From the NCBI GenBank assembly GCA_905480475.1, contig CAJQQO010000316.1:4374-28373 (forward strand): 24,000 bases of DNA, written 5' to 3'. The notes beneath the pieces were generated by a model. That model made no database searches. It was given only the letters and a program-made list of their open reading frames with translations, and had not been told where the DNA came from. Positions 16,872-22,596 of the stretch are shown piece by piece (within the stretch, counting starts at the first letter, position 1; each line of letters begins with the position of its first letter). Origin of the DNA: an uncultured Pseudomonadales bacterium. Its GTDB lineage: Bacteria > Pseudomonadota > Gammaproteobacteria > Pseudomonadales > UBA7434. The position numbers were made by a program, and so were the translations under genes.

Positions 16872-17900
<1,029 letters not shown>

Positions 17901-17939: not shown

Positions 17940-18653
17940 ATGTCTAGCGTTTTTTCTGACTACCGTGGCGGTAAATTCAAAAAGCTATCAGCGCCAGCAA
18001 TGCTGTTTTTTTTATTATCGCTTTCTATATTTAGTGTTAATCAAGCCATTGCCGAACAAACCGAATGGAAAAGCTCAAAAGAAAAAGACGGTATTAAAAC
18101 ATTCTCGAGAAAAATAGCCGGCTCAAAATACAAAGCCATTAGAGGCGAAACCACCTTAGCAATACCAGTAGCAAAACTGGTTGCAGTGATTAACGATGCA
18201 AAAGCCTGCGTGGAATGGGCGGATTTATGCAAAAAATCCGTAGTGAAAAAACAGGTATCCAATACAGAAGCCTATGTTTACACGCTTAACGATATGCCTT
18301 GGCCAGTTAAAGACCGTGAAGTGACAGCGCATTTAAATTGGAGCAAGAATGAACAAGGTAGTGTGACGATGATTAGTCAGGCTGTTATCGAAATACCCAG
18401 CGAAGACTCGAATAAGAATGTAGAAAAAACCAAAGGGGTTGTCAGAATAGAAACAGCTAATGCGCGCTGGGACTTTACGCCGCTTGGCGACAATAAAACA
18501 TTAACCCAATTTGAAATCCATATGGATCCCAATGGAAAAATACCGGGCTGGTTATTAAATCGCTTGGTATTGGATTCACCCTTTACAACCTTTAAGAGCT
18601 TAGCCACACAAGCGTCAAAAGAAAAATATAATAACGCGACGCTTCCGTTTTAA
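17940..18653 (+). CDS. Secreted START/SRPBCC-superfamily lipid-binding domain protein
   Basis: Signal peptide (…LLSLSIFSVNQAIA/EQ), then a START-like pattern (W…..KDGIK.F.RK..GS.YKA.RGE…………………W……………Y…..MPWPV.DRE………….). AAGGA lies 8 nt upstream of the ATG, and the gene starts 39 nt after hemB. Confidence 0.68.
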   Translation: MSSVFSDYRGGKFKKLSAPAMLFFLLSLSIFSVNQAIAEQTEWKSSKEKDGIKTFSRKIAGSKYKAIRGETTLAIPVAKLVAVINDAKACVEWADLCKKSVVKKQVSNTEAYVYTLNDMPWPVKDREVTAHLNWSKNEQGSVTMISQAVIEIPSEDSNKNVEKTKGVVRIETANARWDFTPLGDNKTLTQFEIHMDPNGKIPGWLLNRLVLDSPFTTFKSLATQASKEKYNNATLPF

Positions 18654-18663
18654 TAGCTAATCG

Positions 18664-20430
18664 TCAAGACTGCCATTTTTGTTTAAAAACCTCAGCGCCC
18701 TCTTTGCCTAGATAACGCTTAAGGTATTTATCAGGTGTTTGCCTGAGATCAACCAGAATCAATCCATCTAGCGAATCGTTAAATACTTTGTTAATTGAAA
18801 AGCAGACAAATTTGCCATTTAACGATAGGTAATGCCGCAACAATGTTGGTAAAGCTTTACCCGGATCGCAGCGCCCAACTAGCTTATTCACGACCGAAAC
18901 ATGATTCAGTGACGCCAGCATTTCATTGGTCCAGATTTTACCCGAGACCTTTAATGGCTCAACGGGTGTAACATCATCAAGAAAACGCTGCTCAGCGCAA
19001 AATGATTCAAGCATACATTCTGAAATTAAGGCGCGCGCCAAATCGGAATGCTCATTAGAAATACTGACCGCACCAAATAGCGTATTGTATTCGGGATTAC
19101 GGGCAATATAACTGCCTATACCACGCCATAATAAATCCAAAGTCTGTGGTAAACGCTGATAATCGGGATGAATAAACGAACGCCCCATTTCCAAAGCTTT
19201 ACCGACTTTTTGCAAGTAATCCTTATCAAAATCAAATAAGGTTTTAGAATACAAAGCGTCTAGACCATGATGCTCAACAATCTCGTCAACCCGGCCAATT
19301 CGATAGCCGCCCACCACTCGAGAAGCGCTTTTATCCCAAATAAATAAATGCAGATAATGTGGATCGAACCGATCTGAATCAACACTATTACCCGTGCCCT
19401 CGCCTGCAGCGCGAAAAGTTATTTCACGGGCGACGCCGATTGCCGCCATCAAACAACCTAGACGCTCAAACGGCGCACAATAAACATCGTATTGTTCAGA
19501 TTCGATATAACGGCAATCGACGATCTCATTTAATGCCAACTGAACATTATCGTTAGATATTTTATCCTCGACACTAATCGGCTCAAATACCAATGATGTT
19601 TGTGCTTTGGCTGGCTGTTGATGATTTTTTAAAAAATCGGTACTCATACGTAGATAATCAGTCACTGCACGATCATCTGACAATTTTAACACTTCACGCG
19701 GGCTAATCGTTTCACCAATAATCAGCTTTAACTCACGGCCCTTTTTATTCGCTAACTCGCGAGGTAATAACAAGGTACGCAATAGCGGATGAATCATTGC
19801 CATTAGGTAAAAAAAGCGACTGTTATAACCATCAACATGAATAGGCAAACAACTGGCATTAGAGCGCTTTAGCAAATTGCCAGCAAGCCGATTCCATGGG
19901 TGATCTTCTACCGACCGCGACTGCATATTGACTGAGGCTACTTTTCCGGCTGGAAATAACAGTAGCGCACCACCACCTTTTAGATGCTGAGAAGCTTCAC
20001 GTATGCCTTTTAAATTTTCACGCGCGGCATTTTTTGACAACACATCAACGCCGATAAAAGTCGATTGCAATTCAGGTATACGTCTGAGTAAATTATTGGT
20101 CAGCACTTTGATATCGGGCCGCAACTCCAATAACAGCTTGGTAATAGCCACACCTTCGAGACCACCCAGTGGATGATTAGCAACAATCAGTAAGGGGCCT
20201 TCTTTAGGCACATTCTCCAAGGCATTAAAACGATCAACGGGTTTAAGCTTCACTTCCAGATGATCTAACACCCCTAAAAGAAAGTCTTCGGTGCTACCAT
20301 TTTTAGGCGCGGACTCGTAACAACGCGATAAAGCGTTCAGCCCTAACACACGCTCGACCAAGCGCGCTAACCAACGTTGGCGTATAGGAAGCTGGAAAGG
20401 TTTTGCTAATTGGGAAACTGAAGCATCCAC
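18664..20430 (-). CDS. Bifunctional acyltransferase, OlsF-like: N-terminal lysophospholipid-acyltransferase (PlsC/LPLAT) domain plus C-terminal OlsB-type GNAT N-acyltransferase domain
   Basis: N-terminal half: IVANHPLGGLEG (H-box variant) and LLLFPAGKV (FP[AE]G motif). C-terminal half: REITFRAAGEGTGNSVDSDRFDPHYLHLFIWDK…VVGGYRIG, the D.D.FD..HL…GtYR pattern of the ornithine-lipid/hemolysin-like GNAT family. The 588-aa length and domain order match OlsF as described for Serratia and Vibrio. The start is GTG with AGGA upstream. Confidence 0.72.
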   Translation of the reverse strand: MDASVSQLAKPFQLPIRQRWLARLVERVLGLNALSRCYESAPKNGSTEDFLLGVLDHLEVKLKPVDRFNALENVPKEGPLLIVANHPLGGLEGVAITKLLLELRPDIKVLTNNLLRRIPELQSTFIGVDVLSKNAARENLKGIREASQHLKGGGALLLFPAGKVASVNMQSRSVEDHPWNRLAGNLLKRSNASCLPIHVDGYNSRFFYLMAMIHPLLRTLLLPRELANKKGRELKLIIGETISPREVLKLSDDRAVTDYLRMSTDFLKNHQQPAKAQTSLVFEPISVEDKISNDNVQLALNEIVDCRYIESEQYDVYCAPFERLGCLMAAIGVAREITFRAAGEGTGNSVDSDRFDPHYLHLFIWDKSASRVVGGYRIGRVDEIVEHHGLDALYSKTLFDFDKDYLQKVGKALEMGRSFIHPDYQRLPQTLDLLWRGIGSYIARNPEYNTLFGAVSISNEHSDLARALISECMLESFCAEQRFLDDVTPVEPLKVSGKIWTNEMLASLNHVSVVNKLVGRCDPGKALPTLLRHYLSLNGKFVCFSINKVFNDSLDGLILVDLRQTPDKYLKRYLGKEGAEVFKQKWQS

Positions 20431-20502
20431 TATGCAATTTCCTGATAAGCGTTGTAGAAAAACATTAATTAACTATCCAAAGTCTAAGAGTTAAACGCAA
20501 TA

Positions 20503-21246
20503 CTAAGCGGCAGCGCGGCGTTGTAACACCTGCAAAGGTCCAGCAACGGTTTCACATGGCGCGCCATCACTATAGGCAATCGATACCTGATCGAGGCTGA
20601 CCTGCACTAAACACTGACTCACCGTTTTGGCATATTCGCGATGCATACATACCGAATCGGCGTATTCTGGCTTACCATTCATCGGCGATAAATCATCATT
20701 AATATGACAGCTATGAAATTGCTGTAAAACATTAATATCGTCTTTATTTTCCAGCGATTCAAAATAATCTCTACGCGTATGGCATACCGACTCGGAATGG
20801 TACGACGAAGATGTGACTGGAATCTCTGGTATTAATCGGCTTAACACTTCGCTATCCCAGCTTAACTGAATAGCAATATGCTGAATAATCACAACATCAA
20901 AGCCGCGGTAATTAGATAAATCCATTGACGTTAATATCTGCTCAGCGGCAGCCGTGGTTTCACAGCCTGCTAAAGCCCTAACAATTTCGCCACGACTTTT
21001 TAAATTATCGGTCTTAGGCTCTTTGGCGACATAATTATTTAGCAAGCAAATAGTTAAGCCAAATTGATTGACCGCAAGCCATGTTCCGCCAGCATCGGTA
21101 TCGGTTGGCGCCAAATAATTAACACCACAATCCGTTTGCATCGGCTGCGGAGGCAAAGCGCGTTTGCGAGTTTTTAATTCATCGCGATTAAAAAATAAAG
21201 AATAACCTTCAGTCTCGGCATTAAATAACCAGGTTAAGGTGCACAT
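20503..21246 (-). CDS. NRDE / TANGO2-family protein (DUF833)
   Basis: It starts MCTLTW… with Cys directly after Met and carries the eponymous NRDE motif (FFNRDELKTRK) at residues 20-23. A strong SD (GGGAGG at 21254-21259) lies 7 nt upstream of the ATG, inside the preceding gene. Confidence 0.8.
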   Translation of the reverse strand: MCTLTWLFNAETEGYSLFFNRDELKTRKRALPPQPMQTDCGVNYLAPTDTDAGGTWLAVNQFGLTICLLNNYVAKEPKTDNLKSRGEIVRALAGCETTAAAEQILTSMDLSNYRGFDVVIIQHIAIQLSWDSEVLSRLIPEIPVTSSSYHSESVCHTRRDYFESLENKDDINVLQQFHSCHINDDLSPMNGKPEYADSVCMHREYAKTVSQCLVQVSLDQVSIAYSDGAPCETVAGPLQVLQRRAAA

Positions 21247-21797
21247 CGGCTAGCCTCCCGATGTCGAAGCGTTGCTGGCGCCACACCAAAATCGTCAGGT
21301 GGCGGCGCAACCTTTAAAGCGCGAAGAATAAAACCCACCAAGGCTTGATGATGAATCGAATGACTATGTAAAAAAGCTAGCTCGCGACCAACACTGGATA
21401 ACTGCGGGTTAGCTTCTGCTACTACTGGCGAATTCGATGCGGCAGAAGCCTCGGCTGCCGAAATAGGCCCGGCATCGAGTTTAGTATCCATTGTGACTGA
21501 AATACTTTGCTCAAAGTTATCGATTGGCAACAAGGCCTCAATCAAACTTTTGATCCGCGCCGAAGCCTCTGAGCGATTAACTTCCAAACGTTGTTCGCGT
21601 GCGCGCTGATCATAATTAATATGCCCCGCCGTATGGCCTAGGACAAATGCCTGATAATGGTCAAGTACATGACGAACATGCGCGCCAATGGAGGAATTGT
21701 ATAAAGCCGGATCGGTATGGGTATATTGGCTATCGTCCAGCGCTTCGATAATTTGCGTAAAGCGCTGTAACAAAAATATGTTTTCTTGGTTTAACAA
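21234..21797 (-). CDS. DinB-superfamily (DinB_2 / YfiT-like) metal-binding four-helix-bundle protein
   Basis: Histidine-triad contexts typical of DinB_2: IGAHVRHVLDHY near the N-terminus and FLHSHSIHHQAL near the C-terminus. The start is TTG, and the 3' end overlaps the NRDE gene by 13 nt. Confidence 0.65.
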   Translation of the reverse strand: MLNQENIFLLQRFTQIIEALDDSQYTHTDPALYNSSIGAHVRHVLDHYQAFVLGHTAGHINYDQRAREQRLEVNRSEASARIKSLIEALLPIDNFEQSISVTMDTKLDAGPISAAEASAASNSPVVAEANPQLSSVGRELAFLHSHSIHHQALVGFILRALKVAPPPDDFGVAPATLRHREASRCAP

Positions 21798-22161
21798 TTT
21801 TCTATCACACTTCTCGTTAGTTTTTTAGTGGAGACAATTGATCATATGAGATTCACCATAATAGCGACCAAATTGACCAGCTACGACCCATTACTTAATG
21901 ATTAATTCCCTAGATTTAAATTTGCTTATCTAAACCATGGGCTAAAACCGTCGTATACGGCTATATGCAGCTACAGGCACCTTGCAGCAGGCTTGCTGGA
22001 CAAATCTCGCAGGCAAGTGGATTTGAGCGTGGTATAGTAAGCCAATTCGCTTGTCACTGCGCCCTAGGCGCTCAATAAACAGGCAATATTACTTATAATA
22101 TGCGCATCAGCCCTCAAACGGCATGCGCAGCAGATTATCCACACAGAGAGAAGCTCAAACA

Positions 22162-22596
22162 ATGAAAAAATACGCCCAATGGTTACTTGTCGGTTTTGTC
22201 GCGTTCGTCTTTATCCAATCACTGTTTTTTAAATTCAGCGGCTCTGAAGAAACCGTTATTATATTTAATACCATTGGCGAATGGATGTTATCAATTGGCT
22301 TGCCAGCCGGCCTTGCCGAAGCCTTTGCCAAGCATGGCGGTAACGTTATAGGTTCAACCGAACTGTTTGCGGTTATTCTACTGCTCATTCCCGCCAGCCG
22401 ATTACTTGGCGCATTGCTGAGCTTAGGCGTGATTAGCGGCGCAATTTTCTTTCATCTATTTACCCCTCTGGGCGTTAACCGCGTTATTGATGCGGCGGGA
22501 AATACCGATGGCGGTGCACTTTTTTATATGGCCTGTGGCGTTTGGATTTGCTCGGCAATATTGATCTGGCTTAACCGCCCACAAAGCCTTCGTTAG
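22162..22596 (+). CDS. DoxX-family integral membrane protein
   Basis: About four hydrophobic segments (WLLVGFVAFVFIQSLFF; STELFAVILLLIP; LGALLSLGVISGAIFFH; ALFYMACGVWICSAILIWL), typical of DoxX in size and pattern. I prefer ATG 22162 (MKKYAQW) over the tracked ATG 22123, which adds a 13-aa polar extension. Confidence 0.65.
   Translation: MKKYAQWLLVGFVAFVFIQSLFFKFSGSEETVIIFNTIGEWMLSIGLPAGLAEAFAKHGGNVIGSTELFAVILLLIPASRLLGALLSLGVISGAIFFHLFTPLGVNRVIDAAGNTDGGALFYMACGVWICSAILIWLNRPQSLR

Follow-up and report, generated by a model that had tools for sequence, protein, structure and literature searches.

A DinB-NRDE (TANGO2-like) gene pair tied to OlsF- or OlsB-type aminolipid synthases across bacterial phyla

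Three adjacent minus-strand genes in a 24,000-nucleotide (nt) stretch of DNA, hereafter the window, are the subject of this work. The window comes from an uncultured Pseudomonadales bacterium (assembly GCA_905480475.1, contig CAJQQO010000316.1, positions 4,374 to 28,373). The first gene of this core encodes a DinB_2 protein of 187 amino acids (aa) (21797..21234; TTG start, no in-frame start upstream), the second an NRDE/TANGO2 protein of 247 aa that begins with Met-Cys (21246..20503), and the third an OlsF-type protein of 588 aa (20430..18664; GTG start). An earlier sequence-only reading had described three same-strand genes and called them DinB-like, NRDE and OlsF-like; all three open reading frames (ORFs) were found on the minus strand at these positions, and the family calls are upheld by Pfam and NCBIfam matches. 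The first two genes overlap by 13 nt (21234..21246), as had been noted before and as direct reading of the sequence confirmed. The overlap, CGATGTGCACCTTAA, reads ATG TGC ACC TTA (M C T L) in the NRDE frame and TGT GCA CCT TAA (C A P stop) in the DinB frame, with the DinB stop TAA falling within the NRDE start region. A GGGAGG Shine-Dalgarno sequence lies at 21254-21259, within the DinB gene and 7 nt 5' of the NRDE ATG, and the junction looks like one of translational coupling. Between the NRDE and OlsF genes there is a gap of 72 nt (20431..20502), with AGGAAA 9 nt 5' of the OlsF GTG. A terminator scan of positions 18300-22300 gave no terminator-like site or hairpin in this gap, in agreement with the sequence-only reading, and the co-transcription which that reading had thought plausible is further favoured by the conservation of the overlap and of short gaps in relatives.

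The 588-aa protein joins in one polypeptide an N-terminal lyso-lipid O-acyltransferase (PF19576, Acyltransf_2, residues 69-270; Pfam) and a C-terminal OlsB-like GNAT (PF13444, Acetyltransf_5, residues 335-435). It shares this LPLAT-type Acyltransf_2 plus Acetyltransf_5 GNAT architecture, as well as the NHPLGxxEG acyltransferase motif, with the known OlsF synthases of Serratia proteamaculans (OlsF) and Vibrio cholerae (VC0489 and VCA0646). Its best NCBIfam model is OlsF, with 384 bits over residues 15-574 against an equivalog cutoff of 620, and it also partially matches the GlsB/GlsA and OlsB models. VCA0646, a verified OlsF (PMC12186959) to which the window protein is 40% identical over the full length, scores 432 bits and an Agarivorans homolog 397, both below the same cutoff. 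Since the verified enzyme scores only 432, the cutoff of 620 leaves out true synthases of this branch, and the 384 bits of the window protein are therefore no argument against ornithine-lipid synthesis. The OlsB-like and OlsA-like proteins of related loci likewise fall far under their equivalog cutoffs (185 vs 350 and 180 vs 300, respectively). Unlike PhoB-controlled olsF genes, which carry a Pho box, the olsF of the window has none nearby: a search of the whole window gave three 3-mismatch matches, all away from the cluster and no more than expected by chance. OlsF-type synthases make acyloxyacyl aminolipids, and this branch makes ornithine lipid in V. cholerae. The prediction from sequence that the 588-aa enzyme makes an aminolipid of the ornithine-lipid type is well supported, with ornithine as the putative head-group amino acid, and the gene adds a new member to an established family.

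The conservation of this arrangement was examined in 80 loci that carry relatives of the NRDE gene, one genome per species, with up to 8 kb on each side. Their ORFs were clustered, profile hidden Markov models (HMMs) were built for the recurrent families, and every locus was rescored. Relatives are uncultured marine Pseudomonadales/Cellvibrionales. The loci occur in this group, Porticoccus and Arenicella among the Gammaproteobacteria and, in other phyla, in Acidobacteriota, Gemmatimonadota, Planctomycetota, Calditrichia, Latescibacterota and Verrucomicrobiota; the gene set persists in at least five phyla. Of the 77 loci long enough to show one, 72 have a same-strand DinB gene directly 5' of NRDE, and the same 13-nt overlap recurs in 32 of 59 called pairs, from several phyla. 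Flanks of 3 kb or more on either side are available for 56 loci; of these, 46 (82%) carry an OlsB/OlsF-type N-acyltransferase gene within 3.5 kb on the same strand, and 54 carry either such a gene or a gene of the ATP-grasp family described below. The gap 5' of the synthase gene ranges from -11 to 41 nt in relatives with a fused OlsF, and its median is 80 nt in those where a separate OlsB gene follows. Two further loci, seen through independent database gene calls and precomputed Pfam annotation, give the same gene picture.

The order of the genes varies widely. It is DinB-NRDE-OlsF in the clade of the window, DinB-NRDE-OlsB-OlsA-YHS-c10-LpxO-like in the Arenicella type (c10 being a family of small membrane proteins), ATPgrasp-OlsF-DinB-NRDE-YHS-c10 in Agarivorans and Psychromonas, and OlsB-OlsA-DinB-NRDE-ATPgrasp in Acidobacteriota, Gemmatimonadota, Planctomycetota and Calditrichia. 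In Vibrio, where two replicons from PLSDB were annotated with our own HMMs, the order is ATPgrasp-DinB-NRDE-YHS-membrane ORF-OlsF. In most related loci the pair adjoins split OlsB-like and OlsA-like genes, as in the OlsB/OlsA two-gene ornithine-lipid pathway; the window has the fused form. The reverse test, starting from OlsF homologs with 52-58% identity, again found the pair in Agarivorans, Psychromonas and one further gammaproteobacterium, with OlsF 5' of DinB-NRDE. Because at least five gene orders, with fused and with split synthases, keep the same genes, we conclude that the set is functionally linked. These data show that DinB-NRDE is a conserved pair tied to fused (OlsF) or split (OlsB plus OlsA) synthases, and its two genes are probably translationally coupled. 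The sequence-only reading had proposed adjacency of the three families in other genomes as a test of its module, and the outcome is strongly positive across phyla and rearranged orders. The link is not universal, as the OlsF gene of Photobacterium stands alone and the Sessilibacter OlsF locus keeps DinB with no adjacent NRDE. In that locus (L083 5001-8717, a Sessilibacter corallicola-type contig), the genes for an ATP-grasp protein, OlsF and DinB are followed by a class-V aminotransferase gene in the place of NRDE. No DinB-NRDE or NRDE-Ols fusion protein was seen in the 80 loci or among the top 150 NRDE representatives.

The three-gene module proposed by the sequence-only reading stands as a core, but the recurrent set is larger and includes an ATP-grasp protein, a YHS-domain protein, small membrane proteins and an LpxO-like hydroxylase. 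The ATP-grasp family (c9) is defined by a domain of about 350 aa whose profile matches RimK-domain, glutathione-synthase-like and cyanophycin-synthetase structures (E 1e-8 to 5e-7); judged by these profile matches, it is an ATP-grasp amino-acid ligase family. Its gene adjoins the pair in 19 of the 56 loci and does so in every example from Alteromonadales and Vibrio. In Verrucomicrobia and Acidobacteria the domain forms part of a larger protein, together with an alpha/beta-hydrolase and a scramblase-like DedA/VTT membrane domain. The family has no Pfam model; examples are L013 8771-9892, L081 3863-4990, L085 2643-3782 and L076 8763-11351, with about 20 more. A YHS-domain protein of about 145 aa with a signal peptide recurs in many loci, as do small membrane proteins, either c10 (about 135 aa) or a DoxX/MauE-like family. 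An LpxO/OlsC-family hydroxylase recurs in related operons, and genes for OlsA-like LPLAT proteins recur where the synthase is split. None of the ATP-grasp, YHS, c10 and LpxO-like hydroxylase genes is present anywhere in the window.

The window does carry a DoxX/MauE-like membrane protein gene (22123..22596, plus strand, 157 aa, weak Pfam signal), which is divergent from DinB. Homologs of this ORF occur in 11 loci: divergent from DinB in the clade of the window, between YHS and OlsF in the Vibrio operon, and, in Gemmatimonadota and Acidobacteriota, no more than 5 kb from the pair. It is a probable accessory member of the cluster. The idea that c10 is a distant homolog of it was rejected (hhalign probability 0.2%). 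By its position, the 325-nt intergenic region between the two divergent genes (21798..22122) is presumed to be the promoter region for both the DinB-NRDE-OlsF unit and the membrane-protein gene. A promoter scan gave matches at background level only across 18300-22300, and repeats in this region and in the NRDE-OlsF gap were nothing notable. In several loci from Acidobacteriota, Gemmatimonadota and 'Multivoradales' (L062 4795-6607, L063 3451-5814, L066, L067 and L069), two further genes lie 5' of OlsB-(OlsA)-DinB-NRDE. The first encodes a membrane protein with a ferric-reductase-like haem-binding domain and a Rieske [2Fe-2S] domain, the second a protein of about 260 aa with no Pfam match, which is fused to the Rieske/ferric-reductase-like gene in L063. 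This gene pair hints at an oxidative step. In the Arenicella-type loci (L037 2540-7268 and about 28 others), genes for a PpiD/SurA-like chaperone, the enoyl reductase FabV, an RsmJ-like methyltransferase and RsmE form a conserved run 5' of DinB on the same strand; that FabV adjoins an aminolipid operon could have a functional meaning or could simply reflect synteny.

An instance of this cluster has very probably been studied experimentally already. VCA0646 closes a putative operon of four genes, VCA0649-VCA0646, and low salinity induces it through an internal promoter of its own (PMC12186959). In the work of Mashruwala and Bassler, HapR activates vca0646-0649, a cell-death operon 'of unknown function' whose four genes are all co-regulated, and VCA0647 and OlsF are the two genes sufficient for the quorum-sensing cell-death phenotype (PMC11573629). 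The protein families of the operon are not named in either paper (PMC12186959, PMC11573629). A V. cholerae-type contig (OARB01000004.1, L088), found by exact match to three published primers, covers VCA0647 and VCA0646 (71-517 and 442-2259). There, VCA0647 is a secreted YHS-domain protein encoded directly 5' of VCA0646, and its gene runs at the 3' end 76 nt past the annotated start of OlsF. Judging by where the published primers lie, VCA0648 and VCA0649 together occupy about 1.3 kb, which fits NRDE plus DinB. From this spacing and from the synteny of the other Vibrio replicons we infer that VCA0648 is NRDE and VCA0649 is DinB; when peptides encoded by the primers, and C-terminal fragments, were compared with the DinB and NRDE proteins of Vibrio, the outcome did not decide the matter. 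The OlsF-type gene comes last in a same-strand cluster, as in the window. The two differ in that a YHS gene lies directly 5' of OlsF in V. cholerae, whereas the window has no YHS or ATP-grasp gene. The V. cholerae operon is very probably an instance of this cluster, studied without its families being recognised, which suggests that the cell-death operon is an aminolipid operon.

The NRDE protein belongs to the TANGO2 family (PF05742, 49.3 bits, cutoff 22.6; Pfam). In its subfamily, which comprises 1,138 cluster representatives at E<=1e-30, the motif N20-R21-D22-E23 is invariant, as are C2 and N70. Nearly all of the top 150 representatives are about 245 aa long and align from residue 1, so that Cys2 would be exposed by simple removal of the methionine. 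In the predicted model (pLDDT 84), strand 1 begins at residue 2, which places the cysteine at the start of the first strand of an alpha-beta-beta-alpha sandwich, as in Cys N-terminal-nucleophile (Cys-Ntn) enzymes. The best Foldseek match is human TANGO2 (PDB 8sv7, 9bwa; E 6e-9), yet with only about 14% identity, followed by acyl-CoA:isopenicillin-N acyltransferase (E 3e-6); further matches are penicillin V acylase, the uncharacterised bacterial CV2077, bile-salt hydrolases and NAAA. The residues R26 and D27 of human TANGO2, which have been proposed to be catalytic (PMC13044924), are aligned with R21 and D22; equivalents of human N157 and K166 are not alignable. The bacterial subfamily differs from the human protein by invariants of its own (W6, D49, D51, S146-148, R158, H178, H181, R203) and by its DinB partner; the TANGO2 papers (PMC13044924, PMC12359130) make no mention of a counterpart of DinB in eukaryotes. 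A conserved SVCMHR loop was considered as a Cys/His metal site and rejected, Cys200 and His202 being replaced in Alteromonadales and Vibrio members.

The proposal of the sequence-only reading that NRDE resembles Cys-Ntn enzymes acting on N-acyl amides is thus borne out by the model, with Cys2 at the start of strand 1, but the Cys-Ntn reading of the NRDE/TANGO2 family is not new. Crystal structures of human TANGO2 led their authors to propose that it is a Cys-Ntn hydrolase acting on derivatives of fatty acids, and the protein binds acyl-CoA (PMC13044924, PMC12359130). With NAAA, acid ceramidase, bile-salt hydrolase/penicillin V acylase and isopenicillin-N acyltransferase, NRDE shares the fold and a nucleophile Cys that opens strand 1, at an identity of 8-12%; it needs no propeptide or autoproteolysis, since Met removal would free Cys2. 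In the substrates of these enzymes a fatty or bulky acyl group is joined through an amide bond to a small polar amine, a chemistry analogous to that of N-acyl-ornithine (PMC13044924). The nearest solved relatives of the NRDE model all act on N-acyl amides or acyl-CoA, which supports the role proposed below.

The DinB protein matches PF12867 (DinB_2) with 29.5 bits (cutoff 24.8; Pfam), and its AlphaFold model (pLDDT 91) consists of the long helices of a DinB/YfiT four-helix bundle. Foldseek matches are YizA, BH3987, YfiT, DR0053 and mycothiol S-transferase, with bacillithiol S-transferases and EgtB also found. Invariant in the subfamily are H40, R42, H43, Y62, R65, R67, E72, R138, E139, H146, H149 and H150, the five His residues forming a predicted metal site; as a pattern of sequence conservation, these invariants fit a metal site beside a pocket for an anionic ligand. 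The DinB/YfiT metalloenzymes (YfiT, YizA, mycothiol/bacillithiol S-transferases, the EgtB N-domain) have in common with it the four-helix bundle and His residues on helices 2 and 4, but the TM-scores are only 0.5-0.6 and the identity 10-16%, and the present protein lacks an FGE-like domain and has extra invariant Arg, Glu and Tyr residues. A DinB-fold gene adjoining the gene of a putative Cys-Ntn amidase recalls the EgtB-EgtC pairing.

We tentatively favour, at somewhat less than an even chance, the reading that these genes form the core of an aminolipid gene cluster, conserved across many lineages, in which Cys2 of NRDE acts on an acyl bond of the pathway with DinB as its partner. Its well-supported part is that the GNAT half of OlsF N-acylates an amino acid with a 3-hydroxyacyl chain and that the LPLAT half then O-acylates that chain. 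Once its methionine is removed, NRDE could use the N-terminal Cys2 as a nucleophile on an acyl-amide or acyl-thioester of the pathway, the likeliest target being the N-acyl bond of a lyso-aminolipid/lyso-ornithine lipid or of the aminolipid/ornithine lipid. It might thereby serve as a deacylase or transacylase in turnover, in remodelling of acyl chains or in clearing dead-end N-acyl products. The His/Arg-rich DinB metalloprotein would be its obligate partner, with a part either in holding the anionic head group or carrier or in the cleavage or transfer of a second bond. Because VCA0646 alone makes ornithine lipid in E. coli (PMC12186959), the pair would be accessory and dispensable for basic lipid synthesis. 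The proposed turnover role is at present unfilled, since a 2026 review of ornithine lipids, in which the words 'degradation' and 'turnover' do not occur, names no enzyme that degrades them.

Several observations weigh against this proposal. In V. cholerae, vca0648 and vca0649, the inferred NRDE and DinB genes, are dispensable for the operon overexpression phenotype, and deletion of the operon gave no phenotype (PMC11573629). No enzymatic activity is reported for any NRDE/TANGO2 protein in the TANGO2 literature, the structural papers presenting only docking of fatty acids, palmitoyl-CoA and palmitoylethanolamide (PMC13044924, PMC12359130). The counterparts of human N157 and K166 can only be guessed from spacing, as S146-148 and R158. 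A more distant NRDE (L089) has neither a DinB nor a synthase partner, and verrucomicrobial loci keep DinB-NRDE together with the hydrolase-DedA-ATP-grasp protein and have no OlsB within 8 kb. What we say of the functions of DinB and NRDE is drawn from gene context and fold, and the proposed substrate comes solely from these, with the fold resemblance that of a predicted model. Moreover, a degradative enzyme co-expressed with its synthase needs a rationale, for which remodelling or proofreading may be speculated.

That inherited synteny alone unites the three genes, with no functional connection between them, has next to no probability, and we regard it as effectively refuted. The nearest relatives of the window do keep long-range synteny, including hemB and helicase genes, and OlsF may be transcribed from a promoter of its own, like its V. 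cholerae counterpart (PMC12186959); however, the association survives the five or more gene orders, both synthase architectures and at least five phyla, and PF13444 genes are rare in genomes, so that adjacency in 82% of loci cannot be chance. It is unlikely, in our view, that DinB, NRDE and the ATP-grasp ligase instead modify the head group of the aminolipid. In that case the free alpha-carboxylate would be activated by the ligase and joined to an amine or amino acid, NRDE would be either a glutaminase of the class-II-amidotransferase kind or an amidase that trims, and DinB would be a transferase that depends on a metal. Their product would be an undescribed modified ornithine lipid. Such a role for NRDE has textbook precedent, class-II glutamine amidotransferases and EgtC being Cys-Ntn enzymes as well. 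The profile matches of c9 mark a true ATP-grasp ligase, it adjoins the pair in the 19 loci noted above, and an LpxO/OlsC-like hydroxylase occurs within the same operons. ATP-dependent transfer of taurine to the ornithine-lipid carboxyl is known biochemically without a known gene (2026 ornithine-lipid review), and c9, judged by sequence, is a candidate family for the ATP-dependent attachment of taurine or some other amine at that carboxyl. Yet the window and its whole clade, with no ATP-grasp gene nearby, keep DinB-NRDE-OlsF. Furthermore, the closest structural relatives of NRDE are lipid/acyl amidases, with no glutaminase domain among its top Foldseek matches, and no modified ornithine lipid is reported for the VCA0646-dependent lipid in V. 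cholerae (PMC12186959).

A connection with haem or metal handling appears improbable. NRDE would here be a haem trafficker of the HtpA/HRG-9 type, helped by metal-binding DinB and YHS proteins, and its link to aminolipids would reflect co-regulation under envelope or metal stress and not shared chemistry. The TANGO2 homolog HtpA (SO0126) of Shewanella oneidensis, a proposed haem trafficker of the same Pfam family as NRDE and compared here by its description, promotes cytochrome c maturation, but it adjoins a metal transporter and is described without a DinB or lipid-synthase context (PMC10470608); NRDE has DinB on one side and OlsF on the other, and the window contains neither a transporter gene nor a ccm gene. 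YHS domains bind metal and some loci carry the Rieske and ferric-reductase-like membrane protein; on the other hand, crystallography found only nonspecific binding of haem to TANGO2 (PMC13044924), and the invariance of the catalytic-type residues C2, R21, D22 and N70 suggests an enzyme, not a carrier. The presence of hemB two genes away in the window and its clade was considered as a haem link and rejected as clade-limited synteny, for this adjacency is confined to the closest clade while that of the Ols genes spans phyla and rearrangements. Highly improbable, finally, is a role in low-molecular-weight-thiol chemistry, in which DinB would be a metal-dependent thiol S-transferase similar to mycothiol/bacillithiol transferases or the EgtB N-domain, NRDE would trim the conjugate in the manner of EgtC, Mca or gamma-glutamyl-transpeptidase, and the OlsB-type enzyme would N-acylate the result to a mercapturate-like or sulfur-containing aminolipid. 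The succession of S-transferase, Ntn/amidase and N-acyltransferase mirrors known pathways (textbook), and the ATP-grasp profile also matches glutathione-synthetase-type enzymes. The DinB fold matches do include mycothiol/bacillithiol S-transferases and EgtB, but these are weak (E 0.1 to 1.4) and the better ones are uncharacterised 'putative hydrolases'. In addition, the product of VCA0646 is an ordinary ornithine lipid (PMC12186959), and sulfur-metabolism genes do not recur in the clusters.

TANGO2 deficiency is a severe human metabolic disease. The biochemical function of the protein is disputed between haem trafficking, acyl-CoA binding and hydrolase activity (PMC10470608, PMC13044924, PMC12359130). 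An NRDE subfamily beside synthases of N-acyl-amino-acid lipids provides a defined candidate substrate class for the TANGO2 family, and it brings tractable bacterial hosts to the TANGO2 question, including V. cholerae, for whose operon phenotypes and constructs exist. NRDE, DinB and the ATP-grasp ligase become candidates for degradation or remodelling of ornithine lipids or for modification of their head groups. In the literature searched, including the 2026 ornithine-lipid review, we found no report of the DinB-NRDE pair as an accessory of aminolipid synthesis, nor of the wider gene set around it, nor of the probability that the cell-death operon of V. cholerae is the same cluster. One could go further and suppose that NRDE/TANGO2 proteins are Cys-nucleophile enzymes whose ancestral substrates were N-acyl amino-acid lipids or acyl donors, and that DinB-NRDE is the first ornithine-lipid deacylase or remodelling enzyme; we consider this bolder claim rather doubtful. 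If it holds, the pair would fill the missing catabolic half of aminolipid metabolism, and N-acyl amino acids or acyl-amide lipids would be indicated as the long-sought substrates of human TANGO2.

The other genes of the window are chromosomal housekeeping genes, encoding ClpA, Icd, MnmA, PurB, a DegP-like protease and HemB. The hemB gene (16872-17900, plus strand), which encodes porphobilinogen synthase and is intact in relatives (about 336 aa), has a single in-frame TAA at 17115-17117 (codon 82), with the frame otherwise continuing unchanged. This stop could be a sequencing or assembly error, or a true nonsense mutation in an essential gene of haem synthesis. Between hemB and the cluster, a convergent gene (17940-18653, plus strand) ends 10 nt past the OlsF stop and encodes a START-domain protein (PF01852) with an N-terminal signal peptide. 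It is kept at that position in the five closest loci only (L001-L005), and a secreted lipid-binding protein beside an aminolipid synthase could be a periplasmic lipid carrier.

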